Source: Eledone cirrhosa (Eukaryota). Taken from it: a stretch of DNA of 64,000 bases. How positions within the stretch are numbered: the stretch's first letter is position 1; the number at the start of each line of letters is the position of its first letter. Shown here piece by piece: positions 6,682 through 51,757 of this stretch. The notes under the pieces were generated by a model, which saw only the letters and a list, made by a program, of their open reading frames with translations, had not been told where the DNA came from and ran no database searches. Made by a program: the position numbers and the translations under genes. The DNA lies in the NCBI GenBank assembly GCA_964016885.1, contig OZ024742.1:46376001-46440000 (forward strand), read 5' to 3'.

Positions 6682-6924
6682 TATCTATCTATCTATCTAT
6701 CTAATCTCTGGGATGGACACACGCGTATAACTTGCTGAGTAAGTTCTGTTTAATTTTCTATAGAAATTCTTGTCTGTTAACTTTAATTTTTGTACCATTT
6801 TGTAGAGGGACTGCCAGGTCAAACTTTGATCTGGTCAGTCTCTCAAAATATTCTACGCCTTTAGGCGAAATAGTTAAACCAAAAAAAAAGTTTTTTCTTG
6901 TTGAAAAGTCAATATTTTTTTTAA

Positions 6925-8714
6925 ATGGCCGAAGCCTCTTCACCAAAATTCGAAGGAGGAAAGGGGAAGATAAACTTACAGCTTCCCCCTACCACTGTCA
7001 CAGTAGCAGAGGTCAAGAAGAAAGGTCAGCCAGAGGAAGAATTCTCTCCACCTGTTTACCGACAACTTGACGTTGCCATGGCAACAACCCGAAGAACCAG
7101 CGGCACCAGCAACAGCAACAACAACAACAATGCGACGGACGAAAACAACACCAATAACAATAACAACAACAACAAGACCAATAACGGTGACAACAACAAC
7201 AATGATAACAACAACACCACCAACGACAACAACACAAACAAACAAAATTTCTCCTTCGCCGAGACGACAAGGAAAACCCTCGACTATCTGCCAGTAGATA
7301 TAACCAAAGCGAAGGAGCTACTGGCAGTTGCGAAAAAATATATAGTGTACGGAGAAAATGGTTCATTCACAATCCATTCCTCTCCGGAACTAAAAAGCCA
7401 GAGACTCCTAAACACGGTCATGTTTAGGACAATCTCGAACAAAAGTAAAAAGCCAGCTCAACCATCACAGAGTGAGATAGAGCTGGTTTTAAAAGACGTC
7501 ATGAAGGACATCACCTTCATTCAGAAGGATAGACTCTACGGGAGTCTATCCATTCTCATGAAGGACAGGGACACAGCAGTGAAACTGTCCATCAAACCAA
7601 TCACATCCACCGCATACACCTTCTACCCTACGTACATGGGTAGAAGAACACAAAAAATAAAAATCCACACCATCCTGCCGATTATGGACATATGGTGGGT
7701 TTTGACAGGTTTCCTGGACCTGGAGGATGACATGCTGGTGTCCATGGGAAAGGCATCGGGTGACGCGTTCAGTGGAACGAGCCTCGAACTTGTAGTTCAA
7801 ATGAGGCCCGAAAGGATCGCCCAGATCCCTGAACGCGTCATACTGGATGATCTATCCTTCATCAACATTACCGTTGAGGGTAGACGGCCCTCGTGTTACC
7901 ACTGCGGAACCAGAGGTCACCTGAGGGCTGTCTGTCCCCAACTTAATAAGAAAACCCCAATCCTGCCTACACCACCAACAACTGCACAACCAACACAATC
8001 ACCACAACTACCACTACAAAAACAACCACCACAGCTCAAACCAAAACAAAACAATGTCCAACCCATCCCCTCCACTCAAAAAACAAAAACAATTTCCAAA
8101 ACACTCGCACCGCAAACACAACCCGAAAATATACCCCTCCCCTCCAACGCGGAAGATGACCCTAGTTCGTCGTCAGACGAGGAGGAGCACTTCCACACAA
8201 TCAAAATAAAAAAAAGAAAACACACCTCAGACACACAAATGAAAACAACCCCTCCCCAAAACATGACACTGACACCAACACGAAAGAGCTCACAACAACA
8301 GCAAACAAAAAACACCACACAAAAACAAAAACATGCATACACATACATAAACACAAGAAACAAAAAACTGTTAAACATTGTGTACAACAACAATCTAATA
8401 AAAACACAAGGGCCTAACTTCACCCAGGCAGGGGATTTCCCCCACCTCAAAATGATTAAGGCCCCACAGGACACCTATAAAACTTTAAAAAACAATTTTA
8501 AAGAGGACGTGGGTCCCCCCTGCGTCGGGTCCATTAACCGCGTCCTCCTAAAAAACTACCCCACCCCCTCCCCAAATACCTACACAACTCCAAGCTCCCC
8601 AACCACACAACACACTGATGCCCCTACACTTCCACAAACCACCACCCCACCCAACAACCCACCCCCACCCTAATGGAAATTGTGCAGCCCGATACCCGGG
8701 ACGCAGAGAGGTAA
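6925..8714 (+). CDS. ORF1p of copy C (Asn-rich N-terminus, CCHC knuckle, P/T/Q-rich linker; small frameshifting deletion at ~8660)
   Basis: CYHCGTRGHLRAVC; the true end ...RDAER-TAA (8712-8714) is inferred by comparison with ORF 47712-48047. Confidence 0.85.
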
Positions 8715-8738
8715 GTGCCTTTTCTCTTCACCACCAAC

Positions 8739-11700
8739 ATGGCTATGCTAAGAGTAGGCTGTTTAAATGCGCGTGGCCTGGGCTCAACTTGGAAGCAAGC
8801 AATGCTTCTAAATGACCTCAGGTCACAACGTACAGATGTGATGGTTATTTGCGAGGCCCGGATCAGCAACGTGCGACAGCTGGCCCCCACCTTTGATGAC
8901 TTTGAGATGCACGCATCTCTCTGTCAGCCCGGAGGTGGGGGGTGGAGTTGTCGTTCTGCTGCAAAAACATCTGGGTCTCGCAACACAGATGGTACATTTG
9001 GACCCGGAGGGTCGACTAGTGGTTCTGGACCTTGGCAGTGGTAAAGGCGGAGCGTTTAGGTTGGTAGCCGCCTACGGCCCTTTCGGGTCAATGCGGCCGG
9101 ACTTCTTCCATCGTCTGGAGACTTTTCTAGGGACGTCCCGCTCCTTGCTATTAGTAGGGGACTGGAATGGTATCCTAGATGCACGCTGGGACTACGTAGG
9201 GGCTTGCCCCGATAGAGAGGGGTGTAATAGCCTCAAAGGGTTAATCGGTCGATTTGACCTGGCCGATAGATATCGACTAGATTTTCCGACTGCGCCAACC
9301 TGGACTTGGGCAAATCGTAGCGGATCATCTAGGTCGTACCTAGATAGGTTCTTAGTTAGAATTAAGGATAAGGACTTTTTAAGTTGTCCAAAAATGCGCA
9401 TGGTTGGCTATTCAGACCACAAATTAGTGACCTGCATGGTCAACCTTGACAGAACTCATAGACAGGGACCCGGTTACTGGAAGCTCAACTTGTCCTTACC
9501 GGCAAGTAAGGCTTACAGGAACCGGATTAGCACTTTAGTTAAGGAGCGGTTGACGGGCGCCATCGTCAACAGCAGGTGGTGGGGATCTCTCAAAAGAGAG
9601 ATTAGAGTAGTCTCTATAGAATTTAGTAAGGAGTTAGCCTCAAATAGAAATAGGAAGGAAAGGGAGTTGGTAGATAGTGTAGAAGAGGCAATTAGAAGCG
9701 GCGACGTGGCCAGAGTGCTAGCGTCGAGAACGGCCCTGGGCCAGTTCTTCGACGCGAAACACGAAGGCTGCATCGTCCGAAGCAAAATACGTGCTCTGGG
9801 AAACGAGGGGACCAAAGCTGTTAGCTGGGCCCGCGTGACAGAAACCAAAAGAGGGTGCAGATCCACTATCCGGTCTTTGCGAGACCAGGATGGACGGGTG
9901 ATCCTTGAACCTAAGCAGATGTGCGAGGCTTTTCAAAAGCACTTTGCCGGATTGTTCGGAAGGGGCGGGGGGCCGGTTGGGGACGTGGACATCGGTCCAT
10001 ACCTCGACGGCCTGCCGCGTCTCTCGGACAGGGAGGCGAAGTCCTGCGAGGAGCCGATTTCAGCCGCTGAGATAGAGGACGTGCTGAGCCAATGCGGCAA
10101 ACGCAAATCTCCGGGTCTCGATGGTCTTCCATACGAACTATATCTAGCTATGCCGGACTTGTTCCCCGAACTCCTCGAGGCGGTCTACTGCAACTGGCAA
10201 CAGAACGGGAGAATTCCCTGTGCTGTGACCAAGGGCGTAGTCACGCTAGTGAGGAAGGACGAGAACAAGGGGGACGATATAAATAATTTCAGGCCCATAA
10301 CTCTGCTAAATACAGAGTTACAGATTTTGGCCAAGGTGCTAGCAAAGAGGTTGGCGCTTGTCGTGGGCAACCTGGTGGGAGATGCGCAGACATGTGCTAT
10401 CCCGTCCAGGTCCATCCACGATAACCTCCACCTCATGCGATACATCATAGAGAGGGTTGGGAACGAACCCGGCTTTGGTGGGGCCCTGATCAACTTGGAT
10501 CAATCTAAGGCATTCGATAGGGTCGACCATGGTTACCTGGATGCGGTGCTAGCGGCGGCAGGCTTCGGACCCGTTTTCAGGGGCTGGATCAATGCCTTGC
10601 ACAGCAGCCGCATCTGCACTAGGGTCAAGGTGAACGGCTACCTCTCGGAGCCGTTCGAAATCGCGCGGTCCATCCGACAGGGGTGCCCTCTCTCCTCCCT
10701 TCTGTATGTAATGACTCTAGAGCCACTGCTGCGGAAGTTGGAGTTGTTGCAGGGCATCTCGTTGGAACCGGGATTGCGGAAAGCGGTGTCGGCCTACGCC
10801 GATGACGTAACAGTAATGGTGTCGACGGCCTCGGAAATCAGGGCGATCGGCACCTTACTGTAGGAGTACGAAAGGTTTACAGGGGCTAAGCTGAACCGGG
10901 ACAAGTCGATCGGTCTGCAACTCGGCACGTGGAGGGGCAGATCGATGCCCTCCGATGGCGTCGTCGGGCGCTGGACGGAGGGCCCGGTGAAGTTGCTCGG
11001 GGTCTGGTTCGGACCAGACCTCCAGGTGGAGAAGAACTGGGGTGAGGTGACGAACAGGGTGTTTGCACTGACCCAGAAGTGGGCCGAGTGCAAACTGTCC
11101 CTGAAAGGACGGGCGGAGGTGGCGAACACTTATATAGCGTCCGTCATCTACTACCGCCTGACCGTTGTGCCTTGCCCAAGAGAAACGCTCGCCAAAATGG
11201 AGCGCGCACTCTTCCAATTCCTTTGGAAGAAGCGGGCTCCTATGGTGAGGAGATCCATCTGCTGTCAACACCCTTCGAAAGGAGGGCTGGGGATGCCGTG
11301 GCTAATGATACGTAAACACGCATTAAGGCTACGGCACCTTCAGGTATTCCTCTCCGGTCAACCGGTGTGGGCCCCGTTTGTGAGGCGAGCCTTTCCCAGA
11401 CTCGTCTCACTCACCGAGCTGCAATCCTGGGTCAAGCAAAGACCGAGAAAACTGGGCGCCTGGCACACTGAGTGTGCCCAGGCACTCACGGCTCTCTGGC
11501 AGGCGGACCCGGCTGTCAGTGGAGAATCCACCTCGTCATTCTATAGAGGGCTGGTGGTTAGCAGGTGCGACGATGCCCTCGGAGAAGCCCTAGGCATGGA
11601 GGAAGACGAACTGGCCAACCTGTTCGGTAGGACATTCAGCCCGTGACCCATGGATAACTTCCAGAGGTCCCTGGCCTGGCAATGCTACAGAAGGGCTCTG

Positions 11701-12177
11701 CCCGTTCGAGAAAGGCTCTACAGACACGGGCGCCCGGGTAGGGACCCATCGAAAAAGATCTGTCCCAGATGCGTGTGCGACGAGGAAACCGTTGCACACG
11801 CATTGGTACACTGCTCGGGCATTGCCGATCTGTGGGGTTATGTCGAACAACTGCTGTCAAGGGTGGGACCAATCCGGTTGACCACCGAGTCTATTGTAAC
11901 GATCAAGCCGCCTCCCCTCTTCAAAAACGAAGGAGAGGCGGTGTTTCTGTGCGTAATAGCCATGGCGAAAGAGGTTGTATGGTGGACGCGTCTGAAAGGA
12001 CTGAGGTCAGACACCTTTCTCTCTGGCCAACAACTGGTCCGTTTCTTCCGATATCATTTCGGAAGAAGGATCAGGATGGAGAGAGAGGTGCTGCACCCCA
12101 GCCGTTTCTATGAAAGATGGGTGAAAGTGGCGAGAATGGCCAGTGTGAATGGGCCTTCACTCTACATCAGACTATAG
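8739..12177 (+). pseudogene. ORF2 (APE-RT-CCHC) of copy C, disrupted
   Basis: Extra G in the run at ~8935-8942; in-frame stops at 10861 (TAG) and 11644 (TGA). Confidence 0.92.
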
Positions 12178-12441
12178 GTGAGGAAGATGAAAGACCAAGG
12201 GAGCACCCCTTCTCTGTGCTCCTGAGGAGAAGGGTTGCACACTTTTTTCGGGGGTGTGTGCGACCCCCCAAGGCGCCTCCTCTCTATTGAGGACTTTGTT
12301 ATAAATTTTATTTTTTGTTATATTTTATTTTATTTTTATATATTGTTATTGCCTCCTCCTTATTGAGGACGCCTTGTTTTGTAAACTCCCCCCATTGTAC
12401 TTGTCCCACTTTTGATGCCCTGGTGGCAAATAAAAGAAACA

Positions 12442-12492
<51 letters not shown>

Positions 12493-12493
12493 A

Positions 12494-12565
<72 letters not shown>

Positions 12566-15500
12566 AAATCTAGCTGTCGTCTGTTCTACAGTGTGGATGT
12601 CATTCACTTCGCACAGAAGTTTTGTTCAAATTTATTGAGGAAATCTTGTGAGTTCAAACTTAATTTTGATACAATTGTGTAGCTTGACCCTCCGTCTGAA
12701 CTGTCAGGCGGTGGGTCAGCTCATCTTTACCCCTCCTAGAGGTGAAAAACCTGTTTTAAAAAATTTTGTGTAAAAAAATTTCAATCGTCTAACAGAAATG
12801 TTAAACGCAGCGAACGAAAATAGTGGTGGGGGGACAGCGGTAAGAGTTGTAAGCTCGCACGCTTTAGTCCCCCCTTCCTTCCCAACTAACGTCATAGAGA
12901 AGGAAGGAAAAATTAAAATAAAAACAGACGAATCTGCGGAGAAAAAAAAAAATGACGAAAACACAAATCTGGACATGGATTCCAACAACGAAAAAAAAAG
13001 TGAAGGAGAGAATGGTATTTTATCGGTAAAAATGCCTCAAGAATTCACGAAAGACATTGAAAGCCGAACGGTCAAGTTTCGGACCATCAACAACAGTACA
13101 AAAAAACCTGAACAGCCTTCTCAAGCAAATATCAAAACAGTACTCACAGAAGTACTTAATGAAACCACTTTCATAAGAAAAGACAGACTGTATGGAAGCC
13201 TAGCAATTATCATGAAGAACGAATCGGCGGCAAAAAAAATGTGCTTTGTCACCGATTCGTTCGAAAAATTTCACCTTTTATCCATCTTATATGGGGAAAA
13301 GAACTCAACGCATATGGCTGGATGCAATGATGCCAGATGTGGACTACTGCTGGCTCATAGCTGGCTTCATCGATCCAGTGAATGACAACGTGATTTCCAT
13401 TGGGAAAACCACAGGAAATGCGTTCAGTGGAACAGGTATAGAGCTGGTAGTGCAAATGAAGCCTGAACGCATCGCCCAAATACCCGACAGAATCCTATTA
13501 GAGGACCACGGGTATATAAACATTAGCGTGGAGGGGAGAAGGCCGTCCTGCCATATCTGTGCAGGAAGAGGGCACCTGAAGGCCGCTTGTCCCCAACTCA
13601 ACAAAAAGAAAACCCTGCTACCAACACCAGCTCCACCACCACCACCACAACAGATAAACAAACAACAAAACTCAGTCCCACCCAACCCGTCCCTCAGTAA
13701 AACCACAACACCACCACAACACAAACAGTCACAACACATTACCCCAAAACAAAATACAGGCCCACCCAACCTCTCACTCAATAAAACAACACAACCACCG
13801 CAGACGCAACACACAACACAGTCTAACATAGTGACATCCATCTCCCCCACAAAGAAAACCAACACGGAAACATTACCAGCAAACATACCTCTTCCCTCCA
13901 ACACTGAAGATAACCCAACGAATTCGGAGGAAGAAACGGAGTCCTTCAGACAGATTAAAAGGAAAAAAAGAAAACATGTGCAAAACACACAAGGACAAAC
14001 AACCCCCACCCAAATCTCAACACAATCCAACAAAACAGAAAACACCCCTCCAGCAACAAACAAAACCAAACCTGCCCCTCCCCTCTTCGAAACACTCACA
14101 CCATCGGAAAAAAAGACATTACACTATACTTACATCAACAGAAACAATAATAAATTAAATGAACTCATATACAATAATCCTTCGGTACAAACCGAAGGTG
14201 TAAACTTTGTTTCGTCAGAAAACTACCCACATTTAAAATTAATAAAGATCCCAATGAACCTCTACCAAAAACTAAAAAAGGATTTTAAGGAGGACGTAGG
14301 ACCACCCTCTGTCAAACCCATAAACCGCGTCCTACTAAAAAGCTTTCCCCCTCCCCTTCCCCTCCCCAACACAACTCCAAACACCCCAACCCCACCACAC
14401 ACTGACGACCCCACACCACCACAAGACACCCCTTCACCCAACACCCCCGACCCCATGGAAGTCGTGCAACCCGAACCCCGGGAAGCGGAAAGGTAGGTCT
14501 CTACACTCTCCTTTGGCTCTGCCGCCCACATGGATGTGTTAAGAGTAGGATGTTTGAAAGCACGTGGCCTGGGCTCAACTTGGAAGCAAGCAAAGCTTCT
14601 AAATGACCTCAGGTCATGTAGTATAAATGTAATGGTTATCTGTGAGACTCGAATCAGCGTCGTGCGGCAGCTGGCCCCCACCTTCGATGACTTTGAGGTG
14701 CATGCATCTCTCTGTCAACCTGGAGGTGTGGGTGTGGTTGTCGTACTGCTGCAAAAACACCTGGGTCTTGCCGTACAGGTTGTGCACTCGGACCCGGAGG
14801 GTCGTTTGTTGGTGCTAGACGTTGGCAGTAGTGAAAGTGCGGCCTTGAGACTGGTCGCCGTCTACTCCCCTTTCGGAGCTGAACGGCCCGACTTCTTCCA
14901 GCGTTTGGAGACTTTTCTGGGAACGTCGCGTTCCCTGCTTCTAGCGGGGGATTGGAATGACATCCTGGATGCACGTTGGGACTATGCAGGAGCATGTCCT
15001 AATAGAGTGGGTGTAACAGCCTCAATGGGTTACTCGACCGTTTTAACTTGGTCGATAGATATCGACTAGATTTTCCAACTGTGCCTACCTGGACTTGGAG
15101 AAACCACAGTGGTCAATCTAGATCGTACTTAGATAGATTCTTAGTTAGAAGTAAGGATAGGGACATATTAAGCTGTCCAGAAATGCGCCTGGTTGGCTAC
15201 ACGGATCACAAATTAGTGACCTGCGTGGTCAATCTCGAGAAAACACATAGACAGGGTCCCGGTTACTGGAAACTTAATTTGTCTTTACCGGCAAAAGAGA
15301 CTTACAGAAACCGGATTAGCAGATTAGTTAAGGAGAGGTTGACGGGTGCAATCGTCAACAACCGATTGTGGGCATCTCTCAAAAGAGAGATTAGAACAGA
15401 ATCAATAAGTTATAGCAAGATGTTAGCTGCCGATAGGAATAGAAACGAGAAAGAATCAACAGGTAAATTAGAAGAGGCAATCAAGAGCGAAGATGTGGCC

Positions 15501-27549: not shown

Positions 27550-30500
27550 CTTTACGATGGACACATGTGCTGAGCTCGCTCGGTAAGTTTTTGTTTAAAT
27601 TCATACGAAAATTGTAAACTGTAAACTTTCATTTTTGTACCATTTTGTAGAGGGACTGCCAGGTCAAATTTTGATCTGGTCGGTCTCTCAAAATATTCTG
27701 CGCCTTTGGGCGAAATAGTATTGTGAACATTTTATCTTTCGAAAAACTTCAAAAAACCCTATTTTGAGAAAAATGGCTGAAGCATCTTCACCATCAATCA
27801 AAGAAGGAAAGGGGAAGTCATACTCACAGCTTCCCCCTGCCACTGTCACAGCAGCAGATGCCAAAGGCAGAGGTCAGAGAGAGGAAGAATTGTCTTCACC
27901 TGTTGACCGACCACTAGATGTAGCCACAACTACACAAGAATTTGAAAACAACAACAACAACAACAGCAACAATAAAGACAACAAAAACAACAACAACACA
28001 AACGTCACAAGTACCCACACACCAAACGAGAAAGACAACAACAACAACAAAGATGAAAACAACTCAAACGACGAGAAACAAAACAATACTAAAATCCAAA
28101 GCGAAAACAAAATATCTTTTGCACAAACGGCTAAATTATCAGTCGCTTATGTGCTGGAAGATATTTCAAAAGCAAAAGAAATGCTGGAAAAAGCCAAGAA
28201 ATATGTATCTTTTGGCGAAAACGGTTCGTTTTCTATACATTCACCTCCAGAACTAAAAAGACAGACGGAATTACGAACTGTCGTATTCCGAACAATTTTA
28301 AATAAAACAAAAAAACCAGCGCAACCATCTCAAGCGGAAATTCAGTTAGTCTTGAAAGACGCGATGAGAGATATCACTTTTATACAAAAGGATAAACTCT
28401 ATGGGAGTTTATCCATATTGATGAAAGACGAATTGGCGGCGAAAAAATACTCTGTGTCGCCAATTCGGTCCACACACTACACCTTCTTCCCCACCTACAT
28501 GGGTAAAAAACCCCAGAGGATATGGATAACCACCATCACCCCAAACATAAACTACTGGTGGTTACTAACCGGTTTCCTCAATTTAGACGAGGACAACCTC
28601 ATTTCAATAGGGAAGGCATCCGGCGACGCGTTCAGTGGAACGAACATCGAAGTTCTGACCCAAATAAGGCCAGAACGCAACGCCCAAATCCCTGAGCGCG
28701 TCATGCTGGATGACCGTACCCACCTCAACATTATTGTGGGGGGTAGGCGTCCCTCCTGTTACCTCTGTGGCAATAGAGGTCACCTGAGGGCTGCCTGTCC
28801 CCAGCTCACACAGAAAAAACACTGCTACCAACACCACCCCAACTACAACAACAAAAACAACCACAACAACAACAACAACAAAAACCAACAACGCCACCAC
28901 CACCACCACCACAACAACAACAACAACAAACACGTGAAAAAATAACACAGAATACTGTCCCACCCAATCCCCCCCTACCCAAAACAAATACAAAAACACA
29001 CACACCGCAAACACTACCAGAAAACATACCCCTCCCACCCAACAAGGAAGACGAACCCCTTTCGTCGCAAGACGAAAAAGATCCCTTCCAACAAGTAAAA
29101 AGAAAGAAGAGGAGACGCACCACAGACACACATGTTAACTTTAACCCCCCCCCCAAGAGAACACAAACTACACACAAACCACCCCTCCCTGTCACACAAC
29201 ACTAACTGCTACACAAAAAAAGACCTTACAATACACATACATGAACACAGACAACAAAGAATTACGGAAAACAATTTCAGCGAACCCTTCGGTCCAAACT
29301 GAAGGGCCAAACTTTATAACTGCTGTGGGACTACCTCATTTAAAAATGATAAAAGTCCCAATGCACTTGTACAAAACACTGCAAATAAATTTCACGGAGG
29401 ACGTGGGCTCCCCCCTGCGCCAAACCAATCAACCGCGTCCTCCTAAAAAATTTCACCCCCCACCCCACCCAGACACCCACTCAACCACAAACACCCCAAC
29501 CCCACAACACACTGATGCCCCTTCACTTCCACAAACCACCACCCCACCCAACAACCCATCCCCAACCAGCATGGAAATTGAGCGGCCCGTTTCCCGGGAC
29601 GCAGAGAGGTAAGTGCCTTTTCTCTTTACCACCAACATGGCTGTGCTAAGAGTAGGGTGTCTAAATGCGCGTGGCCTGGGCTCGTCTTGGAAGCAAGCAA
29701 TGCTTCTAAATGACCTCATGTCACAATCTATAAATGTGATGGTTATCTGCAAGGCCCGGATCAGCAGCATGCGACAGCTAGCCCCCACCTTTGACGACTT
29801 TGAGATGCACGCATCTCTCTGTCAGCCCGGAGGTGGGGGTGGGGTTGTCGTTCTGCTGCAAAAACATATGGGCCTTGCAACACAGATAGTTCACTTGGAC
29901 CCAGGGGGTCGACTGGTGGTGCTGGACCTTGGCAGCGGTGAAGGTAGAGCCTTTAGGCTAATAGCCGCATATGCCCCTTTTGGGACAGAGCGGCCCGACT
30001 TTTTCCAGCGTCTGGAGTCTTTTCTAGGGACGTCCCGTTCCATGCTTTTAGTGGGGTATTGGAATGGTATCCTGGATGCACGTTGGGACTATGCAGGGGC
30101 ATGTCCCGATAGAGAGGGGTGCAACAGCCTCAAGGGGTTACTCGGCCGATTTGACCTGGCCGATAGATTTCGACTAGATTTTCCGACGGTGCCAACCTGG
30201 TCTTGGTCAAATCGCAGCGGATCATCTAGGTCGTACCTAGATAGATTTTTAGTTAGAAATAAGGACAGGGACTTTTTAAGTTGTCCAGAAATGCTCATGG
30301 TTGGCTATTCAGACCACAAGTTGGTGACCTGCATGGTCAACCTTGATAGAACGCATAGACAGGGCCCCGGTTACTGGAAGCTCAACTTGTCCTTGCCGGC
30401 AAGTAGAGCCTACAGGAATCGGATTAGTACGTTAGTTAAAGAACGGTTGACTGGAGCGATCGTCAACAGCAGGTGGTGGGTATCTCTAAAGAGAGAGATT

Positions 30501-33338
30501 AGAGTAGTCTCGATAGAATTTAGTAAGGTTCTAGCTGCGGATAGGAATAGGAAGGAAAGGGAGCTAATAGATAGAGTAGAAGAGGCAATTAGAAGCGGCG
30601 ACGTGGCCAGAGTGCTAGCGTCGAGAACGGCTTTGAGCCAGTTTTTCGACGCGAAGCACGAAGGCTGCGTTGTCCGAAGTAAAATACGTGCTCTAGGGAA
30701 CGAGGGGACCAAAGCTGTTAGCTGGGCCCGCGTGACAGAGGCCAACAGTGGAACTAAATCCACCATCCGGTCTTTGCGAGACCTGGATGGACGGGCGATT
30801 CTTGAGCCTAAGCAGATGTGTGAGGCCTTTCAAAGGCACTTTGCCCGACTGTTCGGGAGGGGCGGGGAGCCGGTTGGGAACGTGGACTTCGGTCCATACC
30901 TCGACGGCCTGCCGCGCCTCTCGAACAGGGAGGCGAAGTCCTGCGAGGAGCCGATTTCGGCCGCTGAGATAGAGGACGTGCTGAGCCAATGCGGCAAACG
31001 CAAATCCCCGGGTCTCGATGGTCTTCCTTACGAATTATATCTAGCTATGCCGGACTTGTTCCCCGATCTCCTCGAGGCGGTCTACTGCAACTGGCAACAG
31101 AACGGGAGAATTCCCTGTACTGTGACCAAGGGCGTAGTCACGCTAGTGAGGAAGGACGAGAACAAGGGGGACGAAATAAGTAACTTCAGGCCCATAACTC
31201 TGCTAAATACAGAGTTACAGATTTTGGCCAAGGTGCTAGCAAAGAGGTTGGCGCTTGTCGTGGGAAACCTGGTGGGAGATGCGCAGACATGCGCTATCCC
31301 GTCCAGGTCCATCCATGACAACCTCCACCTCATGCGATACATCATAGAGAGGGTTGGGAACGAACCCGGCTTTGGTGGGGCTCTGATCAACTTGGATCAA
31401 TCTAAGGCGTTCGATAGGGTCGACCATGGTTACCTGGATGCGGTGCTAGCGGCGGCAGGCTTCGGACCCGTTTTCAGGGGCTGGATCACTGCTATGCACA
31501 GCAGCCGCATCTGCTCTAGGGTCAAGGTGAACGGCTACCTCTCGGAGCCGTTCAAAATCGCGCGGTCCATCCGACAAGGGTGCCCTCTCTCCTCCCTTCT
31601 GTATGTGTTGACTCTCGAGCCACTACTGCGGAAGTTGGAGTTGTTGCAGGGCATCCCTTTGGAACCGGGATTGCGGAAAGCGGTGTCGGCCTACGCCGAT
31701 GACGTGACAGTAATGGTGTCGACGGCCTCCGAAATCGAGGCGGTCGGCACCTTACTGGAGGAGTACGAAAAGTTCACAGGGGCTAAGCTGAACCGGGACA
31801 AGTCGATCGGTTTGCAACTCGGCACCTGGAGGGGCAGACCGATGCCCTCCGATGGCGTCGTCGGACGCTGGACGGAGGGCCCGGTGAAGTTGCTCGGGGT
31901 CTGGTTCGGACCGGACCTCCAGGTGGAGAAAAACTGGGCGGAGGTTACGAACAGGGTGTTTGCACTGACCCAGAAGTGGGCCAGTTGCAAACTATCCCTG
32001 AAAGGTCGGGCGGAGGTGGCGAACACCTACATAGCGTCCGTCATCTACTACCGCCTGACCGCAGTGCCCTGCCCAAGGGAAACCCGCACCAAGATGGAGC
32101 GCGCGCTCTTCCAATTCCTTTGGAAGAGGCGGGCTCCTATGGTGAGGAGATATATCTGCTGTCAACACCCTTCGAAAGGAGGGCTGGGGATGCCGTGGCT
32201 AATGATGCGTAAACACGCATTAAGGCTACGGCACCTCTACGTATTCCTCACCGGACAACCGGTGTGGGCCTCGTTTGTGAGACGAACCTTTCCCAGACTC
32301 GTCTCACTCACCGAGCTGCAATCCTGGGTCAAGCAAAGACCGAGAAAATTGGGCGCCTGGCACACTGAGTGTGCCCAGGCGCTCACCGCCCTCTGGAAGG
32401 CGGATCCGGTTATCAGTGGAGACTCCACCGCAACATTCTATAGAGGGCTGGTACGCAGCAGGTGCGACGACGCCCTCGGAGAAGCCCTAGACATGGAGGA
32501 GGACGAACTGGCCAGCCTGTTCGGTAGGACATTCAGCCCGGGACCTATGGACAACTTCCAGAAGTCCCTGGCCTGGCAGTGCTACCGAGGGGCTTTACCC
32601 GTTCGAGAAAGGCTCTACAGACACGGACACCCGGGTAGGGACCCCGCCAAAAAGATCTGTCCCAGATGCGTGTGCGACGAGGAAACCGTTGCACACGCAT
32701 TGGTACACTGCTCGGGCGTAGCCGATCTGTGGGGCTATGTCGAACAACTGCTGTCAAGGGTGGGACCGATCCGGTTGACCACCGAGTCTATTGTAATGAT
32801 CAAGCCGCCTCCCCCCTTCAAAGATGAAGCAGAGGCGGTGTTTCTGTGCGTAATAGCCATGGCCAAAGAGGTTGTATGGTGGACGCGTCTGAAAGGACTG
32901 AGGTCAGGCACCTTTCTCTCTGGCCAACAACTGGTCCGTTTCTTCCGATATCATTTCGGAAGAAGGATCAGGATGGAGAGAGAGGTGCTGCACCCCAGTC
33001 GTTTTTATGAAAGGTGGGTGAAAGTGGCGAGAATGGCCCGTGTGAATGGGCTTTCTCTTTACATAAGCCTGTAGGTGGAGAAGAGGAAGGAACGAGGGAG
33101 CACCCCCTCTCTGTGCTCCTGAGGAAAAGGGTTGCACACTTTTTTCGGGGGTGTGTGCGACCCCCCAAGGCGCCTCCTCTCTATTGAGGATTTTGTTATA
33201 AATTTTATTTTTTGTTATATCTTATTTTATTTTTATATTTTGTTATTGCCTCCTCCTTATTGAGGACGCCTTTTTGTGTAAACTCCCCCCTTTGTACTTG
33301 TCCCACTTTTGATGCCCTAGTGGCAAATAAAAGAAACA
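27549..33338 (+). mobile_element. Copy G: solitary full-length Tx1-like LINE inside (TATC)n
   Basis: Frameshifted ORF1 ~27773-29612 (CYLCGNRGHLRAAC), open ORF2, 3' UTR with AATAAA. Confidence 0.96.
29637..33074 (+). CDS. ORF2p (AP endonuclease, reverse transcriptase, CCHC finger), uninterrupted, 1145 aa from ATG 29637
   Basis: CLNARGL, YLDRFL, SDH, GPGYWKLN, KSPGLDG, KAFDRV, RQGCPLS, YADD, CPRCVCDEETVAHALVHC. Confidence 0.93.
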   Translation: MAVLRVGCLNARGLGSSWKQAMLLNDLMSQSINVMVICKARISSMRQLAPTFDDFEMHASLCQPGGGGGVVVLLQKHMGLATQIVHLDPGGRLVVLDLGSGEGRAFRLIAAYAPFGTERPDFFQRLESFLGTSRSMLLVGYWNGILDARWDYAGACPDREGCNSLKGLLGRFDLADRFRLDFPTVPTWSWSNRSGSSRSYLDRFLVRNKDRDFLSCPEMLMVGYSDHKLVTCMVNLDRTHRQGPGYWKLNLSLPASRAYRNRISTLVKERLTGAIVNSRWWVSLKREIRVVSIEFSKVLAADRNRKERELIDRVEEAIRSGDVARVLASRTALSQFFDAKHEGCVVRSKIRALGNEGTKAVSWARVTEANSGTKSTIRSLRDLDGRAILEPKQMCEAFQRHFARLFGRGGEPVGNVDFGPYLDGLPRLSNREAKSCEEPISAAEIEDVLSQCGKRKSPGLDGLPYELYLAMPDLFPDLLEAVYCNWQQNGRIPCTVTKGVVTLVRKDENKGDEISNFRPITLLNTELQILAKVLAKRLALVVGNLVGDAQTCAIPSRSIHDNLHLMRYIIERVGNEPGFGGALINLDQSKAFDRVDHGYLDAVLAAAGFGPVFRGWITAMHSSRICSRVKVNGYLSEPFKIARSIRQGCPLSSLLYVLTLEPLLRKLELLQGIPLEPGLRKAVSAYADDVTVMVSTASEIEAVGTLLEEYEKFTGAKLNRDKSIGLQLGTWRGRPMPSDGVVGRWTEGPVKLLGVWFGPDLQVEKNWAEVTNRVFALTQKWASCKLSLKGRAEVANTYIASVIYYRLTAVPCPRETRTKMERALFQFLWKRRAPMVRRYICCQHPSKGGLGMPWLMMRKHALRLRHLYVFLTGQPVWASFVRRTFPRLVSLTELQSWVKQRPRKLGAWHTECAQALTALWKADPVISGDSTATFYRGLVRSRCDDALGEALDMEEDELASLFGRTFSPGPMDNFQKSLAWQCYRGALPVRERLYRHGHPGRDPAKKICPRCVCDEETVAHALVHCSGVADLWGYVEQLLSRVGPIRLTTESIVMIKPPPPFKDEAEAVFLCVIAMAKEVVWWTRLKGLRSGTFLSGQQLVRFFRYHFGRRIRMEREVLHPSRFYERWVKVARMARVNGLSLYISL

Positions 33339-37305: not shown

Positions 37306-40300
37306 TACTCTTTGAGTCTCAGTCATTGATGTTAGTTAACTGGAAAGTTTGTTGAAATGAATATCAAACCACTACCTGTAGCCTCAGATATTCAGGACGT
37401 ATCGGAGGGTTCTTGCTGTTCCCAGCAAGCATGCCTTTTGAAGCGCTCCAAAAAGCGTGAAGAGGCCAATTTTCTTTAATCATCCCTGGAAACGTTTTGA
37501 GATAGTCCCTAGTGCGCCTATGACAATCGGGATCACTTTGACTTCATGGCAGTTCCAAATCCTTTTTACCTCCCACTTTAAGTCCTGGTATCGGTTAATT
37601 TTCTCCCTCTCCTTCTCTTGCACTCTCGTGTCGAATGGGGAGGCCACATCCAAAATCAGGCACGATCATTTTTCTTTGTCCACAACCACCAGGTCAGGTC
37701 TATTGTGTTCCAGTTTCTTGTCCGTCTGTATCCTAAAATCCCACAGCACCTTCACCTGGTCGTTTTCTATCACCGACTCTTGCTTATGCTCATACCACTT
37801 CTCAGAATGTGGTGAATTGTTTACTTTGCATAGGTTCCATAGGATCACCCTGCCCATCACATCATGTCTCCAACCCTTATAGTGAGTCTGGGCTAGGTGT
37901 TTACACTCGGATACAATGTGAGCCACAGTCTCCTCTCTCTCTCCACAGATCCTGCACAGTGGGCTAGCCTCCTCCTTGTAAATATGGTGTTTCAGCCACT
38001 TCGTTTTGAGGGCCTGCTCCTGCGCAGCCATTAACATTCCTTCTGTAGCCTTTTTAAGGTCTCCTCTTCTCAACCAGTTCCATATCTGTGGATCTCTGAA
38101 TTCCGTTTTCTCAAAGAAGGTACTATGAAGGGATTTTTCATGAATGTTGCTCTTTCTCCTTGTTGTTATTTCCTTCCTGGACATCCCCTTGTCTATTGTC
38201 CTCTCCTTCAGTACAATTCTGAGCATTAGCTTCTTACTATCGGTCACGTATTTGTGTAGGTTGTTTTTCTCAATCTGAACACAGTCCTCTATGCTGATAA
38301 GACCTCTTCCACCTTCAGATCTCCTTAAGTAGAATCTATCGACATCACTCCTCTTGTGGAACATGTTGTAGATAGTCAATAGCTTCCTAGTCTTCCTATC
38401 CATTTCTTTTTGTTCAGCAACATTCCATCTCAGAATTCCCGCACTGTACCTAATAATAGACACAGCTCGGGAATTTACTGCTATGGCATTCTTACTGTTC
38501 ATATGTGACTTTAATACGCTCCTTACTCTCCGAATGTATTCAGATCTTATCAATTCCTTCATTTTTTTGTTCTTGATGTCATCAGCCTCCAGAACACCCA
38601 AATAATTGTATCCTTCTTCAGTGTCAATTTCCTTTATCATCTCACCTGTTGGTACCTGAAATTCCGTTGCTTCTGCTCAATTTACCCCCTCTTCATCACA
38701 AGGACTCCACACTTACTAATACCAAATTGCATACATATATCATTGCTGAAAATACGGACAGTGTCAACAAGCACATCCAACTCCTTCTCACCCTTCCCGA
38801 AGAGCTTAAGATCGTCCATGAAGAGGAGGTGATTGGTAGTAAGCTCTCCCTTTGCCAATTTGTATCCTGCTCTCACTTTTCACAGTATAATGGTCAGGGG
38901 TATCAGGGCAAGGACAAACAACAGAGGGGACAGACTATCTCCCTGGAAGATACCTCTCTTGATCTTCACGCCTCCCAAGGATTCTCCAGCTGATATCAAC
39001 TCTGTTTTCCAGGACTTCATACTTTTGCTCAACAACTGTCTGATGTTATCTGCCACCTTGAAGATCACTAGGCTTTTGGTGATCCAAGAATGAGGCACCA
39101 TGTCAAATGCCTTTTTGTAGTCTATCCATCCCATGGCAAGACCAGTGTGTCTCCTCTTGCAATTCCTCATTACCATCTTATCAATAAGTAACTGGTCCTT
39201 TGTACCACGGGACTTTTTTCGGCATCCTTTCTGTTCGTCCGGTAACAAGTCGTTTGCGTGGAGGTGATGGTAGATTTCCTCAGACATAATGCTTGTCAAC
39301 AGTTTCCACATTACGGACAGACATGTGATAGGTCTATAGTTGGTAACATCATTACTCTTGATTCGGTCTTTCATTACCAGAACTGTGGTACCTTTTGTCA
39401 ACCACTCTGGTACCTCACCTGACGTCAAGCAGTCATTGAACATGGTTGTCAGTTTCGGGTGGAGGGATGTTACATTTTTACTCCAATACCCCTGCACACC
39501 GTCTGGGTCTGGTGATTTCCAGTTTGTTAGTTTTTTGGCCTGCCCCTTAAGAGTTTCAACTGTGATACTCAAATCAGTTTGTTGGTGTGCCTGTTCACTA
39601 ATCTCCTTCTGTACTGTCTCAATCCACACTGCCTGGTCATTATGTTTAACATCCTGCTCCCATATTCCTCTCCAGAATGCCTTAGTTTGTTCCGCCTCAG
39701 GGATCAAGTCGTTGCCTCTTTCTTTCCCTTCAAGCTGTCCAAACAACATCTTCTGGTTGTTGTCAAACATGCGGTTCAGTCTATACTGACTGACTCTGCT
39801 CTTGTATCGCCTATTTTTTGCACTCTTTGCTACAATGCGTTGCTTCAGTTCCTCTATGATAATATTTAACCTTTTCCTCCTAGTTTTGTACTTTATTTCC
39901 AGTCTACTTTTAGTGTCTATGTTTTTTAGTGTCCCATTCAGCAGGGACTCAAGCTTTCCAATGTCATTTCTCATTTCCCTGATTTGACCATTCAGTCGTT
40001 TCTTCCACCAAGGTTCTGATCTTTCTTGTTTGTTGTTTCCTCTCGCTTTTATGCCAAGTAATTTCCTCACCGCATTTGCTGTTGCTTTGAGGATATTGTT
40101 GCACTGGTGAAGGCTCCTCGTCTCAAGGTATGGGATGACTTTGTTTACCTTAGCTGTTGTTTCTTTTAACTTTTTCCTGTCTACAAATCTTAGGTTCATA
40201 GGTTTCCCCACTATCATTGTTCATTTCATCTACCACTAAGTTTAAGATATCAACCAAATCTTGTCCTAGCCCGTCAGCATTCATCTCCTCAATGGCCGTA

Positions 40301-40920
40301 TCTTTGTTCCAGGTATTATTTATTTCAGCATTCAGATCATTGTCTGCTTCGGATGGTTCCTCCGTTCTCTCAACCTCTTCACCTTCATTTCCAACTGGCT
40401 CGTTTGCCTGGCATACTCCACTCTCCATCTCCAAGCTAATCTCTCTGCTCAGTTCCTCCAGTTCCAGCTCGCTTATCCACCCATTAGTTCTTATTACCCG
40501 AGCCTGCCCGGCCAATTTTTGTTCATCTAATTTAAATAGACCAATCTCGTTCCAGATGTTATGCATCCGTTTCCTATAGCCTTTTTCCTTGGGGTTACTC
40601 TTCAGGTAAAATTGCCTAACAGTTCTAGTCAATTCTTTCATCCAGTTGGTTCTGGTCCCTTTCCTTCTGCTTCCTCCGACACCAGCAGTATTTGGTTGAC
40701 AGCCAGGTCCCTGTTGCTGAGCCAGGGAGCACCTGCTGGGTGAGAGTCTGTCACATGACATTCCAGTCTCCACTTCACCGTTATTCGAACTGTTTAGGTT
40801 CGACATTGAAACACTCTTATCGAGGATTGGTGAATGTATGGTTACATAACCACCGGTGATTTCATCACCTCCGGTGATTTGATCACCCTCGGTGATTTTA
40901 GCGTGGCACTATCACGCTGT
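37306..40920 (-). mobile_element. R4/Dong-like non-LTR retrotransposon (single ORF ~40806-37384, RT plus RLE endonuclease, frameshifted)
   Basis: YRPITCL, DYKKAFD, RGIFQGDSLSP, HLLFMDD, CRICGEREETVAHIVSEC, RHD, NRPDLVVVD; ends in (TAA)n as Dong elements do. Confidence 0.9.
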
Positions 40921-45100: not shown

Positions 45101-45560
45101 ACAGCAGCACCTGCTCGGTGGTCAAAGTTAATGGTCCCCTCTCGGAACCGTTTCAGATCTCCCGATCGGTCCGTCAAGGGTGCCATCTTTCCTCCCTTCT
45201 GTGCGTGTTGATTCTTGAGCCTTTACTGCGGAAGCTGGAGCTGTTTCAGGGCATCCCTCTCGAACCGGGACGCGGAAGGTCTGTGTGATGCGGACGACAT
45301 CACCGCGATGGTGTCGAATACCTCGGAAATCGAAGTGGTCGGCAACTTATTGGAGGAATATGAAAGGTTGACGGTAGCAAAACTTAACCCGGAAAAGTCG
45401 GTGGCTTGCAACTCGGCACCTGGAAAGGCAAATCTATGCCGTCCAACAGCGACGTTGGGCGCTGGATGGACGGATCGGTAAAGTTGCTCAGGGTTTGGTT
45501 CGGGCCAGACCTCCAGGTGGATAAGAATTGGGACGAGGTGACGGGCAGGGTAGCCCTCCA
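42117..45560 (+). mobile_element. Copy J: divergent, decayed Tx1-like LINE (ORF1 relic, endonuclease deleted at ~44205, partial RT)
   Basis: Asn-rich N-terminus, TFAAAAAK, CFVCGEKTHLRAFC; then AKHEGC, RKSP.LDGLPYE, DQSKAFDR, RQGC. Confidence 0.88.
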
Positions 45561-45900
45561 CGTAGAGAGTACTGGCAGCAGATGGACCACCTCACCAACG
45601 GAACCTGACCCCTCCACAAGAATTTGAAGAGGAGCCGCTCCAAAATGGTGAGGTGCAAACGCGGGCAAGGGACGACGGTCAGAGGGTACTAGATGACGGA
45701 CGCCCATTTCTGGGGGAGACTGGCTACCCTGCCCGTCACCTCGTCCCAATTCTTATCCACCAGGAGGTCTGGCCCGAAAAAAATCCCGAGCAACTTTACC
45801 GGTCCGTCCGTCCAGCGCCCAACGACACTGTTGGACGGCATGGACTTGCCTCTCCAGGTGCCGAGCTGCAAGCCCACTGACTTTTCCGGGTAAAGTTTTG
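45553..45900 (-). mobile_element. Inverted RT fragment of the J-type family
   Basis: Minus strand: GLQLGTWRGKSMP..KNWDEVTGRV..PLTVVPCP..LERLLFKFLW..SICCQ..GG. Confidence 0.88.
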
Positions 45901-46551
45901 GATGTGTGTGTGAGTGAGTATGTGCATGTATGCGCGTGCGTGTGGAATCAAAAAATTAAGATGTCCTTTCATTGCTAATGGTAGCAGCCAAATACCGGCT
46001 TCCCGCGCAGTTGGGTGTTATTTCTAGCAGTTAAAAGGCATTTTGATTTTGTGATTATACACGCATACTTATCTATTTGGACATCTAGATTATATTTTAA
46101 CGGAAGTATTCGTGGTAGCTTTCTTTCGTAACCGACGTTCGATGTGACTCTACTATTCCCGAAAGATATTCTAATACAATCTCACACATCGTGGCCTGCC
46201 CTTTACCAAAATCGTGTTTTAAGGCGAGCGGGGCTTCACGCCTAGCGAAGCCGAAGTAAGTTATAGCCTTTAAAGTACGATCGTGGGCAACCCAGGGGTC
46301 CACTTGCCACATGTATATATACATACATAATTATCGCACAACTTCATATATATATATACTTATATAAGAATCACATCAAGAAAGATGCTGATGTTACATA
46401 AATTGTTTATTCATAATGATTATTTCAACAGTTCTCTTATGCCACCCAAGATGTAATTTATGCATTTGCTGTTGTTATGAGAACGGTATCTTCAGATGAA
46501 AATCTGATTTTGTGATATGCCGCAGTGAAAAAACACGCCCTTCTATTCGTG

Positions 46552-47552: not shown

Positions 47553-47701
<149 letters not shown>

Positions 47702-47713
47702 TAATCTAGCTGT

Positions 47714-50700
47714 GTACAACAACAATCTAATAAAAACACAAGGGCCTAACTTCACCCAGGCAGGGGATTTCCCCCACCTCAAAATGATTAAGGCCCCACA
47801 GGACACCTATAAAACTTTAAAAAACAATTTTAAAGAGGACGTGGGTCCCCCCTGCGTCGGGCCCATTAACCGCGTCCTCCTAAAAAACTATCCCACCCCC
47901 TCCCCAAACACCCTCACAACTCCAAGCTCCCCAACCACACAACACACTGATGCCCCCACACTTCCACAAACCACCACCCCACCCAACAACCCATCCCCCA
48001 CCCTAATGGAAATTGTGCAGCCCGATACCCGGGACGCAGAGAGGTAAGTGCCTTTTCTCTTCACCACCAACATGGCTATGCTAAGAGTAGGCTGTTTAAA
48101 TGCGCGTGGCCTGGGCTCAACTTGGAAGCAAGCAATGCTTCTAAATGACCTCAGGTCACAACGTATAGATGTGATGGTTATTTGCGAGGCCCGGATCAGC
48201 AACGTGCGACAGCTGGCCCCCACCTTTGATGACTTTGAGATGCACGCATCTCTCTGTCAGCCCGGAGGTGGGGGTGGAGTTGTCGTTCTGCTGCAAAAAC
48301 ATCTGGGTCTCGCAACACAGATGGTACATTTGGACCCGGAGGGTCGACTAGTGGTTCTGGACCTTGGCAGTGGTAAAGGCGGAGCGTTTAGGTTGGTAGC
48401 CGCCTACGGCCCTTTCGGGTCAATGCGGCCGGACTTCTTCCATCGTCTGGAGACTTTTCTAGGGACGTCCCGCTCCTTGCTATTAGTGGGGGACTGGAAT
48501 GGTATCCTAGATGCACGCTGGGACTACGTAGGGGCCTGCCCCGATAGAGAGGGGTGTAATAGCCTCAAAGGGTTAATCGGTCGATTTGACCTGGCCGATA
48601 GATATCGACTAGATTTTCCGACTGCGCCAACCTGGACTTGGGCAAATCGTAGCGGATCATCTAGGTCGTACCTAGATAGGTTCTTAGTTAGAATTAAGGA
48701 TAAGGACTTTTTAAGTTGTCCAAAAATGCGCATTGTTGGCTATTCAGACCACAAATTAGTGACCTGCATGGTCAACCTTGACAGAACTCATAGACAGGGC
48801 CCCGGTTACTGGAAGCTCAACTTGTCCTTGCCGGCAAGTAGAGCCTACAGGAACCGGATTAGTACGTTAGTTAAGGAACGGTTGACTGGAGCGATCGTCA
48901 ACAGCAGGTGGTGGGTATCTCTAAAGAGAGAGATTAGAGTAGTCTCGATAGAATTTAGTAAGGTTCTAGCTGCGGATAGGAATAGGAAGGAAAGGGAGCT
49001 AATAGATAGAGTAGAAGAGGCAATTAGAAGCGGCGACGTGGCCAGAGTGCTAGCGTCGAGAACGGCTTTGAGCCAGTTTTTCGACGCGAAGCACGAAGGC
49101 TGCGTTGTCCGAAGTAAAATACGTGCTCTAGGGAACGAGGGGACCAAAGCTGTTAGCTGGGCCCGCGTGACAGAGGCCAACAGTGGAACTAAATCCACCA
49201 TCCGGTCTTTGCGAGACCTGGATGGACGGGCGATTCTTGAGCCTAAGCAGATGTGTGAGGCCTTTCAAAGGCACTTTGCCCGACTGTTCGGGAGGGGCGG
49301 GGAGCCGGTTGGGAACGTGGACTTCGGTCCATACCTCGACGGCCTGCCGCGCCTCTCGGACAGGGAGGCGAAGTCCTGCGAGGAGCCGATTTCGGCCGCT
49401 GAGATAGAGGACGTGCTGAGCCAATGCGGCAAACGCAAATCCCCGGGTCTCGATGGTCTTCCTTACGAATTATATCTAGCTATGCCGGACTTGTTCCCCG
49501 ATCTCCTCGAGGCGGTCTACTGCAACTGGCAACAGAACGGGAGAATTCCCTGTACTGTGACCAAGGGCGTAGTCACGCTAGTGAGGAAGGACGAGAACAA
49601 GGGGGACGAAATAAGTAACTTCAGGCCCATAACACTGCTAAATACAGAGTTACAGATTTTGGCCAAGGTGCTAGCAAAGAGGTTGGCGCTTGTCGTGGGC
49701 AACCTGGTGGGAGATACGCAGACATGCGCTATCCCGTCCAGGTCCATCCATGACAACCTCCACCTCATGCGATACATCATAGAGAGGGTTGGGAACGAAC
49801 CCGGCTTTGGTGGGGCTCTGATCAACTTGGATCAATCTAAGGCGTTCGATAGGGTCGACCATGGTTACCTGGATGCGGTGCTAGCGGCGGCAGGCTTCGG
49901 ACCCGTTTTCAGGGGCTGGATCACTGCTATGCACAGCAGCCGCATCTGCTCTAGGGTCAAGGTGAACGGCTACCTCTCGGAGCCGTTCAAAATCGCGCGG
50001 TCCATCCGACAAGGGTGCCCTCTCTCCTCCCTTCTGTATGTGTTGACTCTCGAGCCACTACTGCGGAAGTTGGAGTTGTTGCAGGGCATCCCTTTGGAAC
50101 CGGGATTGCGGAAAGCGGTGTCGGCCTACGCCGATGACGTGACAGTAATGGTGTCGACGGCCTCCGAAATCGAGGCGGTCGGCACCTTACTGGAGGAGTA
50201 CGAAAAGTTCACAGGGGCTAAGCTGAACCGGGACAAGTCGATCGGTTTGCAACTCGGCACGTGGAGGGGCAGACCGATGCCCTCCGATAGCGTCGTCGGA
50301 CGCTGGACGGAGGGCCCGGTGAAGTTGCTCGGGGTCTGGTTCGGACCGGACCTCCAGGTGGAGAAAAACTGGGCGGAGGTTACGAACAGGGTGTTTGCAC
50401 TGACCCAGAAGTGGGCCAGTTGCAAACTATCCCTGAAAGGTCGGGCGGAGGTGGCGAACACCTACATAGCGTCCGTCATCTACTACCGCCTGACCGTAGT
50501 GCCCTGCCCAAGGGAAACCCTCACCAAGATGGAGCGCGCGCTCTTCCAATTCCTTTGGAAGAGGCGGGCTCCTATGGTGAGGAGATCCATCTGCTGTCAA
50601 CACCCTTCGAAAGGAGGGCTGGGGATGCCGTGGCTAATGATGCGTAAACACGCATTAAGGCTACGGCACCTCTACGTATTCCTCACCGGACAACCGGTGT

Positions 50701-51757
50701 GGGCCTCGTTTGTGAGACGAACCTTTCCCAGACTCGTCTCACTCACCGAGCTTCAATCCTGGGTCAAGCAAAGACCGAGAAAACTGGGCGCGTGGCACAC
50801 TGAGTGTGCCCAGGCGCTCACCGCCCTCTGGCAGGCGGATCCGGTTATCAGTGGAGACTCCACCGCAACATTCTATAGAGGGCTGGTACGCAGCAGGTGC
50901 GACGACGCCCTCGGAGAAGCCCTAGACATGGAGGAGGACGAACTGGCCAGCCTGTTCGGTAGGACATTCAGCCCGGGACCTATGGACAACTTCCAGAAGT
51001 CCCTGGCCTGGCAGTGCTACCGAGGGGCTTTACCCGTTCGAGAAAGGCTCTACAGACACGGGCGCCCGGGTAGGGACCCCGCCAAAAAGATCTGTCCCAG
51101 ATGCGTGTGCGACGAGGAAACCGTTGCACACGCATTAGTACACTGCTCGGGCGTAGCCGATCTGTGGGGCTGTCAAGGGTGGGACCGATCCGGTTGACCA
51201 CCGAGTCTATTGTAATGATCAAGCCGCCTCCCCCCTTCAAAGATGAAGCAGAGGCGGTGTTTCTGTGCGTAATAGCCATGGCGAAAGAGGTTGAATGGTG
51301 GACGCGTCTGAAAGGACTGAGGTCGGGCACCTTTCTCTCTGGCCAACAACTGGTCCGTTTCTTCCGATATCATTTCGGAAGAAGGATCAGGATGGAGAGA
51401 GAGGTGCTGCACCCCAGCCGTTTCTATGAAAGATGGGTGAAAGTGGCGAGAATGGCCCGTGTGAATGGGCCTTCACTCTACATCAGACTATAGGTGAGGA
51501 AGATGAAAGACCAAGGGAGCACCCCTTCTCTGTGCTCCTGAGGAGAAGGGTTGCACACTTTTTTCGGGGGTGTGTGCGACCCCCCAAGGCGCCTCCTCTC
51601 TATTGAGGATTTTGTTAAAAATTTTATTTTTTGTTATATCTTATTTTATTTTTATATTTTGTTATTGCCTCCTCCTTATTGAGGACGCCTTTTTGTGTAA
51701 ACTCCCCCCTTTGTACTTGTCCCACTTTTGATGCCCTAGTGGCAAATAAAAGAAATA
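47714..51757 (+). mobile_element. Copy H: Tx1-like LINE truncated in ORF1; mosaic of C and B/G types; ORF2 48072-51493 with a frameshifting deletion at ~51170
   Basis: ORFs 47712-48047, 48048-51197 and 51101-51493; 23-bp TSD at 47691-47713 / 51758-51780. Confidence 0.95.

Follow-up and report, generated by a model that had tools for sequence, protein, structure and literature searches.

In the genome of Eledone cirrhosa, a Tx1-like long interspersed nuclear element (LINE) of the L1 group carries a 5′ splice-site motif at the end of the first, ORF1, of its two open reading frames (the second being ORF2), and this motif is present in all 14 lineages of the element examined. The 64,000-nucleotide stretch of contig OZ024742.1 analysed here (positions 46,376,001 to 46,440,000; “the window”) is a nest of copies of this element, most of them with a (TATC)n run before and after. 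We conclude that the donor is selected as a motif and is no mere by-product of the ORF1 stop codon, because its core is fixed across lineages, varies only at positions +3 and +4, and persists where the ORF1 frame and stop shift. Judged from the sequence, it likely binds the U1 small nuclear ribonucleoprotein (U1 snRNP). Tentatively, and with somewhat less than even confidence, we favour the reading that the donor is occasionally spliced to an acceptor at the ORF2 end, giving an ORF1-only mRNA, and that only the unspliced RNA is copied into the genome. The constancy of the donor between lineages with an identity of only about 70% shows that the family depends on a signal resembling a splice site. 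Should ORF2 be spliced out, the solution of the Drosophila element copia would have been reached independently by a LINE; otherwise, the element would offer a clear-cut natural example of selection on a U1 site for some function other than splicing.

A Conserved Splice Donor at the ORF1 End

Copy C of the window (6705–12441, forward strand, as are all features below unless stated otherwise) is a full-length element which is disrupted by frameshifts and stops. Its ORF1 (6925–8714) contains a weak CCHC knuckle and is followed, after a pyrimidine-rich spacer leading into a conserved CCAAC-ATG-G (8717–8741), by ORF2 (8739–12177, with the ATG at 8739), which encodes an APE endonuclease, a reverse transcriptase (RT) and a putative C-terminal zinc finger. 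The donor, AG|GTAAGT, occupies 8709–8716 with the cut after 8710, and the proposed optional intron would extend from 8711 to 12177.

All five donors that a first-pass annotation of the window had listed were recovered: AG|GTAAGT with its GT at 8711 in copy C, at 29609 in copy G (motif 29607–29614) and at 48044 in copy H (48042–48049), and AG|GTAGGT at 14493 in copy D1 (14491–14498) and at 53833 in copy D2 (53831–53838). That the motif overlaps the ORF1 stop is true of the subfamily, whose TAA lies at 8712–8714, but not of copy C itself, in which ORF1 stops early, at 8673, 38 nt upstream; most sister copies are one base longer than copy C near the ORF1 end and read on to the stop at 8712–8714. 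The donor of copy E (60219–60226) is indeed poor, as the annotation had cautioned, but this is a point change at +2 only and no trait of the lineage, since other E-type copies keep an intact GAG|GTGAGT.

For comparison, the 3.0-Gb genome was searched with a motif from the ORF2 start, which, with C and D types excluded, has 9,630 exact matches. Sixty elements, all on contig C1, were taken from these matches or from the C/D list and picked to span the motif variants; together with ten elements from the window and its flanks they form a non-random set of 70, in 54 of which the ORF2 end was located. Fourteen lineage representatives, whose ORF2 sequences are 68–95% identical, were compared in detail, and splice sites were scored with a rough matrix.

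Among the 70 elements, the donor reads AG|GTAAGT in 37, AG|GTAGGT in 12, AG|GTGAGT in 8, GG|GTGAGT in 3 and otherwise in 8, with two elements matched by no pattern. The bases −1G, +1G, +2T, +5G and +6T are invariant in the 14 representatives and −2A is present in 13, while most flanking positions agree in 5–11 (the alignment was anchored on the donor motif; an unanchored MAFFT alignment gave identical columns). Positions +3 and +4, which lie opposite the two pseudouridines of U1, vary between A and G only and thereby produce the stops TAA, TAG or TGA. The spacer from the donor to ORF2 ranges from 25 to 52 nt in these representatives. In five lineages (L120, L101, L116, L136 and L142 types) ORF1 runs in a shifted frame and stops at +6 to +8 with the donor unchanged, L120 having an intact ORF1 of 643 codons in that frame. 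Phase assignment is firm where such long open frames exist (L120, and L114 with 332 codons), depends on homology in L116, and is ambiguous in some E-type copies.

By score, the donor ranks first of the 264–317 GT sites per element in 11 of the 14 lineages and second in the other three. A score of at least 6 within 70 nt before ORF2 is reached in 55 of 70 elements versus 39 of 4,900 control windows; sense-strand donors as such are not depleted in the element (10 vs. 8.2 in shuffled sequence).

Three further observations concern this region. Two elements, L215 and L226, of a lineage whose ORF2 ends on TAA (see below), show an inverted junction precisely at the ORF1-end donor. The E-type spacer (60222–60266) has a pyrimidine tract and CAG just 5′ of the ORF2 ATG, an acceptor-like arrangement that is uncommon in other lineages. 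A short intron of 39–66 nt that would fuse ORF1 to ORF2 was considered and rejected, since Arg/Gly codons account for the AGs and the C/D variants include no fused copy.

A Proposed Join of the Donor to the ORF2 End

What speaks for a partner site at the ORF2 end is the reading frame. Joined in silico to the AG of the ORF2 stop, the donor ends ORF1 within two codons in 10 of 14 lineages, compared with 3 of 14 when phases are swapped and 1 of 14 in phase 0. When an AG up to 15 nt away is allowed, a post hoc extension, the fit becomes 13 of 14 versus 7 of 14 with swapped phases; all six lineages that have the TAG and lack an AG at −7 fit. The claim that such a join rebuilds an ORF1 terminus reading AER-stop is borne out for the C and D types, though not for copy C itself, where ORF1 has already ended at 8673, and the roughly 40 residues that it was said to add in copy G amount to 41 extra codons.

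In the reading that we tentatively prefer, the donor on the ORF1 stop would bind U1 snRNP, and in a minority of transcripts its partner would be a weak acceptor that coincides with the ORF2 stop or precedes it by a few bases, so that an ORF1-only mRNA results. This would provide ORF1 protein (ORF1p) in excess over ORF2 protein (ORF2p), as copia does for Gag. Balanced splicing, as in retroviruses, needs a strong donor together with a weak acceptor, and this combination would keep most of the RNA at full length. Because its stop codon would coincide with the splice junction, the short mRNA would evade nonsense-mediated decay; it would not be copied, as it encodes no ORF2p of its own and would lose the ORF2-end half of a conserved stem.

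Evidence against Splicing at the ORF2 End

Several observations weigh against this reading, the first of which concern the acceptor. The candidate site, the ORF2 stop TAG followed by GT (12175–12179), is weak: it is the 67th of 262 AGs in copy C, and across lineages it scores −3.0 to 2.7 and ranks 4th to 76th of about 265. A competing CAG (12168–12170), 7 nt before the ORF2 end, is an alternative candidate, an AG at this distance being found in 7 of 14 lineages, and no clear conserved branch point upstream of the ORF2 end was seen by eye in the 14-representative alignment.

The ten TAG|GT ends to which the first-pass annotation appealed are all present where it placed them, but they are not ten independent cases, because the copies are homologous, fall into about four or five lineages and have alignable 3′ untranslated regions (UTRs). 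The 54 located ORF2 ends comprise TAG|GT (37), TAA|AT (8), TAG|TT (4), TAG|GC (3), TAG|AT (1) and TAG|GG (1). TAG occurs in 13 of 14 representatives. Among synonymous sites, this level of conservation is reached by 61 of 245 that are four-fold and by 35 of 99 that are two-fold. Both outside homologues retain the C-terminal ORF2 peptide, and in 13–14 of 14 rows a GCCT some 20 nt upstream is able to pair with the AG|GT, with one two-sided change (RNAalifold); coding and an RNA stem thus account for part of the conservation of TAG|GT. The last 40 ORF2 codons show slight extra synonymous constraint (6 of 13 vs. 116 of 371), which is not used as support. On balance, the ORF2-end acceptor is only partly above chance.

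TAA or TGA stops of ORF2 in related subfamilies had been named by the annotation itself as telling against its proposal, and such a case exists. An abundant lineage (8 of the 54 ends, and 38 of the first 100 ORF2-start matches listed) ends ORF2 on TAA, has no AG at the stop, and keeps a perfect donor; of its three top-scoring acceptors, two are placed at −75 and +158 relative to the end of ORF2, a post hoc observation in favour of splicing.

The frame-fit evidence, in turn, is weakened because lineages share ancestry and because T followed by two purines easily makes a stop. Of four cases of G-T-purine-purine, three give one, and perhaps two or three independent events stand behind the 14 lineages. 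Furthermore, G, L126 and L139 misfit at the AG of the stop, where the AG 7 nt upstream would end each of them properly.

Finally, the ORF1-only retrocopies that had been predicted were not found. With up to one mismatch, the spliced C/G/D junction motif has no match in the whole genome, against 2,374 exact matches of the unspliced motif; this spliced pattern covers 11 of 13 in-silico C/G/D joins, while 28 of 51 joins of all lineages fall outside both junction patterns (23 of 51 exact). No spliced case is contained among 47 ORF1 ends followed by a non-G (16 mutants or small indels, 31 look-alikes within ORF2), 12 followed by G and a non-T, 3 followed by GTG, 5 matches of a 3′-side pattern (four mutated stops, one truncation) and 2 matches for the E, L104, L111 and L139 types. 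In the TAA lineage, 0 of 40 matches are spliced (spacer kept in 36, two inversions, two unrelated or fragmentary), with a pattern blind to joins that do not start with GT. One element that starts at the acceptor, L038, was rejected as a spliced copy, its target-site duplication and foreign upstream DNA indicating a chance 5′ truncation. In the tested lineages, ORF1-only retrocopies are hence absent or very rare. For human L1, by comparison, spliced RNA is the source of about 2% of the full-length copies (PMC5860796). Among the 15 joints listed for contigs of four runs of unknown kind compared with 7300–12430 (201 more are unlisted), none connects 8710 to 12178.

The absence of ORF1-only retrocopies also has to be seen against the 3′ UTR (12178–12441, AATAAA at 12429). 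It contains three hairpins (12199–12330) that are conserved across lineages, with pairs varying among the 14, and that resemble the tails of stringent-type LINEs; such hairpins might allow copying in trans.

Possible U1 Binding without Splicing

Close behind follows an explanation that we regard as possible but doubtful, and that can coexist with splicing to the ORF2 end: U1 would bind the donor, splicing to the ORF2 end would be negligible, and the site would protect or stabilise the intronless 5.7-kb RNA against premature cleavage and polyadenylation, TAG|GT being a by-product of the stop codon and the 3′ RNA stem. This would account for a donor that is kept in the TAA lineage, which has no terminal AG, and for the want of spliced copies at either the ORF1-end donor or the 5′ UTR donor described below. 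ORF1 also holds many AATAAA/ATTAAA hexamers, and 11 of 14 lineages have one no more than 700 nt upstream of the donor. Protection does not, however, predict the frame fit of 10 of 14 versus 3 of 14, and few poly(A) signals are found in ORF2, downstream of the donor. Moreover, an unpaired splice donor tends to impede nuclear export. A precedent is nonetheless on record, as U1 prevents premature termination in the Arabidopsis element EVD (PMC5580714).

An Intron-Like Piece in the 5′ UTR

The 5′ UTR of copy C contains a predicted intron-like piece of 67 nt (6739–6805), which opens with GTAAGT and closes with TTTTGTAG; homologues are located near 27583–27650 and at about 58706. Most lineages, among them L139, L128, L144, L120 and L158, have in this UTR either an intron-like piece of 59–69 nt or a lone GTRAG donor. 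Of 24 5′ ends, 21 carry this second GTRAG motif, 20–125 nt from the end. An AT-rich piece of 67–69 nt with TTGTAG as its last bases starts there in the C, G, E, L139 and L128 types; other 5′ UTRs have a 59–62-nt piece with a terminal YAG, and some lack a following acceptor. Where the old GTRAG is lost, it re-emerges at a new place, and this recurrence, often without a good acceptor, also favours U1 binding for protection. Some donor–acceptor pair arises in 10–31% of trials with single shuffled UTRs, and the UTRs are partly related.

In genomic copies, the C/G/E-type piece is kept in 829 cases and no loss was found, seven of seven matches without the acceptor AG still holding the piece. For human L1, a 5′ UTR intron has been lost in 116 of 6,609 full-length copies (PMC5860796). 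As the present piece is never lost, the genomic copies may be uninformative about splicing of the mRNA: either the copied RNA is never spliced while the mRNA may be, as in barley BARE (PMC3735527), or both donors bind U1 without splicing. Penelope-like elements have a short 5′ UTR intron that likewise outlives retrotransposition (PMC8557442), but they use another RT class and mechanism, and the intron in the present LINE is only predicted.

These two sites could form a two-RNA programme resembling that of retroviruses or copia, in which the short 5′ UTR intron and the ORF2-spanning intron are both removed for an ORF1-only mRNA, while the unspliced RNA would make ORF2p and serve as the sole template, which would let the two introns persist in thousands of genomic copies. 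As a whole, this scheme appears rather unlikely.

Further Alternatives

It is improbable that the motif resembles a donor by coincidence, involves neither splicing nor U1, and is a translation signal through which ORF1 is terminated and ORF2 re-initiated, or else a small hairpin. In favour of this, G plus any stop codon resembles a donor, a pyrimidine spacer and the invariant CCAAC-ATG-G follow the motif, and several lineages permit a short stem that places the motif in the loop. Against it, +5G and +6T are invariant though non-coding in phase-2 lineages, the motif stays when the stop moves and varies only by A/G at +3/+4, and the folds differ among lineages. Least credible is a different partner for the donor, an acceptor near the start of ORF2 (at about +440 to +465) whose use would bring a frameshift and premature termination, as in plant Ty1/copia elements (PMC5580714, PMC3735527). 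In 8 of 14 lineages this acceptor belongs to the three best, but it lies within a hydrophobic endonuclease motif, so that its pyrimidines are explained by coding; it is followed by no conserved poly(A) signal, and no such genomic copy is found among the C/D variants.

Comparison with Known Elements

The usual explanation for the excess of ORF1p over ORF2p in LINEs is that ORF2 is poorly translated from a single bicistronic RNA. HAL1 (half-L1) elements consist of ORF1 and the 3′ end without ORF2, which is the product that the first-pass annotation predicted; no precise counterpart was found in the present genome.

The closest parallels to splicing out ORF2 are found in long terminal repeat (LTR) elements. 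In Drosophila copia, an intron covering the whole of pol is removed to give the Gag RNA, and in EVD (shGAG), the U1 site used for splicing also stops premature termination (PMC5580714). Copia, EVD and barley BARE1 (PMC3735527) share with the present element a donor at the end of the structural gene, and their genomic RNA needs intron retention; EVD further matches in a U1 site with a second role (PMC5580714) and BARE in separate RNA pools (PMC3735527). These are, however, one-ORF LTR elements with demonstrated splicing (PMC5580714, PMC3735527), whereas here splicing is predicted for a two-ORF LINE.

Among LINEs, splicing is regarded as harmful (PMC5860796). The human L1 products SpIREs (PMC5860796) and SpORF2 (PMC2896524) illustrate that LINE RNA can have usable splice sites and a conserved donor that mostly stays unspliced; those donors lie in the 5′ UTR, and their splicing removes UTR or ORF1, while the present donor lies at the ORF1 stop. 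Our literature search, in which subscription journals and Repbase were thinly covered, returned no description of a conserved donor at a LINE ORF1 stop or of an ORF2-spanning intron; PMC7192593, PMC9341512 and PMC9115989 were likewise silent on the matter.

Classification and Neighbouring Features

By its sequence, the element qualifies as a non-LTR retrotransposon of the L1 group. Human L1 ORF2p is the best solved relative of ORF2 (E = 6e-46 over residues 9–857, phmmer; R2, E = 7e-19), and the RVT_1 domain matches with E = 5e-26. The N-terminal Exo_endo_phos match (E = 0.004) is weaker than the curated cut-off, and zf-CCHC in ORF1 (E = 0.002–0.01) and zf-RVT at the ORF2 C-terminus (E = 1.5e-5) likewise fall short of theirs. 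The sole named homologue is from Argonauta hians (57% identity). In the Atlas, the look-alikes of ORF1 belong to CCHC and ZCCHC3-like clusters and are mostly molluscan, while a protein search with ORF1 among proteins of 320–1019 amino acids returned nothing at E ≤ 0.001. In copy C, ORF2 is disrupted by a frameshift near 8937 and stops at 10861 and 11644.

Hallmarks of the L1 group are seen in 5′-truncated copies, in an AATAAA with TATC behind it at 9 of 10 ends, and in a target-site duplication of about 20 nt around L038. The 5′ ends adjoin TATC or ATT runs, a target preference as in the Tx1 clade, with no null count behind it. The (TATC)n run 5′ of copy C (6682–6701) is the tail of a preceding copy used as an insertion site, and copy D1 was inserted into the tail/target run that follows (12442–12565). 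Microsatellite-inserting, target-specific L1-group elements form the Tx1 clade (PMC4494074, PMC3472496), and active L1-Tx1 families are described for Octopus vulgaris (PMC13282606). By its anatomy and by comparison with PMC4494074, the element is Tx1-like: Kibi, Koshi and crocodilian Tx1 likewise have two ORFs, an ORF2 with APE endonuclease, RT and a zinc finger (a putative one in the present element), and microsatellite insertion. The present element differs in targeting (TATC)n and (ATT)n, and the literature search turned up no description of a conserved ORF1-stop donor for those elements.

Target choice seems to have switched inside the family, as half of it inserts into and ends in (ATT)n instead of (TATC)n (L101, L108, L109, L116, L134–L138, L145–L149). 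Trees of the 5′ and 3′ parts of ORF2 conflict for several copies (29613–33074, 48048–51493; L133, L152), which points to mosaic elements. About 70-nt tandem units containing TA lie upstream of the 5′ ends of L111 and L112, and L045–L048 form a head-to-tail array with a spacing of about 5.8 kb. Within the window, a different RT-bearing element occupies 37666–40908 on the minus strand (27% identity to the ORF2 described here), and an inverted ORF2 fragment at 45542–45907 sits beside an old copy, like a 5′ inversion. In copy H, a few bases resembling a D-type 5′ end precede the ORF1 fragment (47699–47711; compare 57604), which suggests a template jump.

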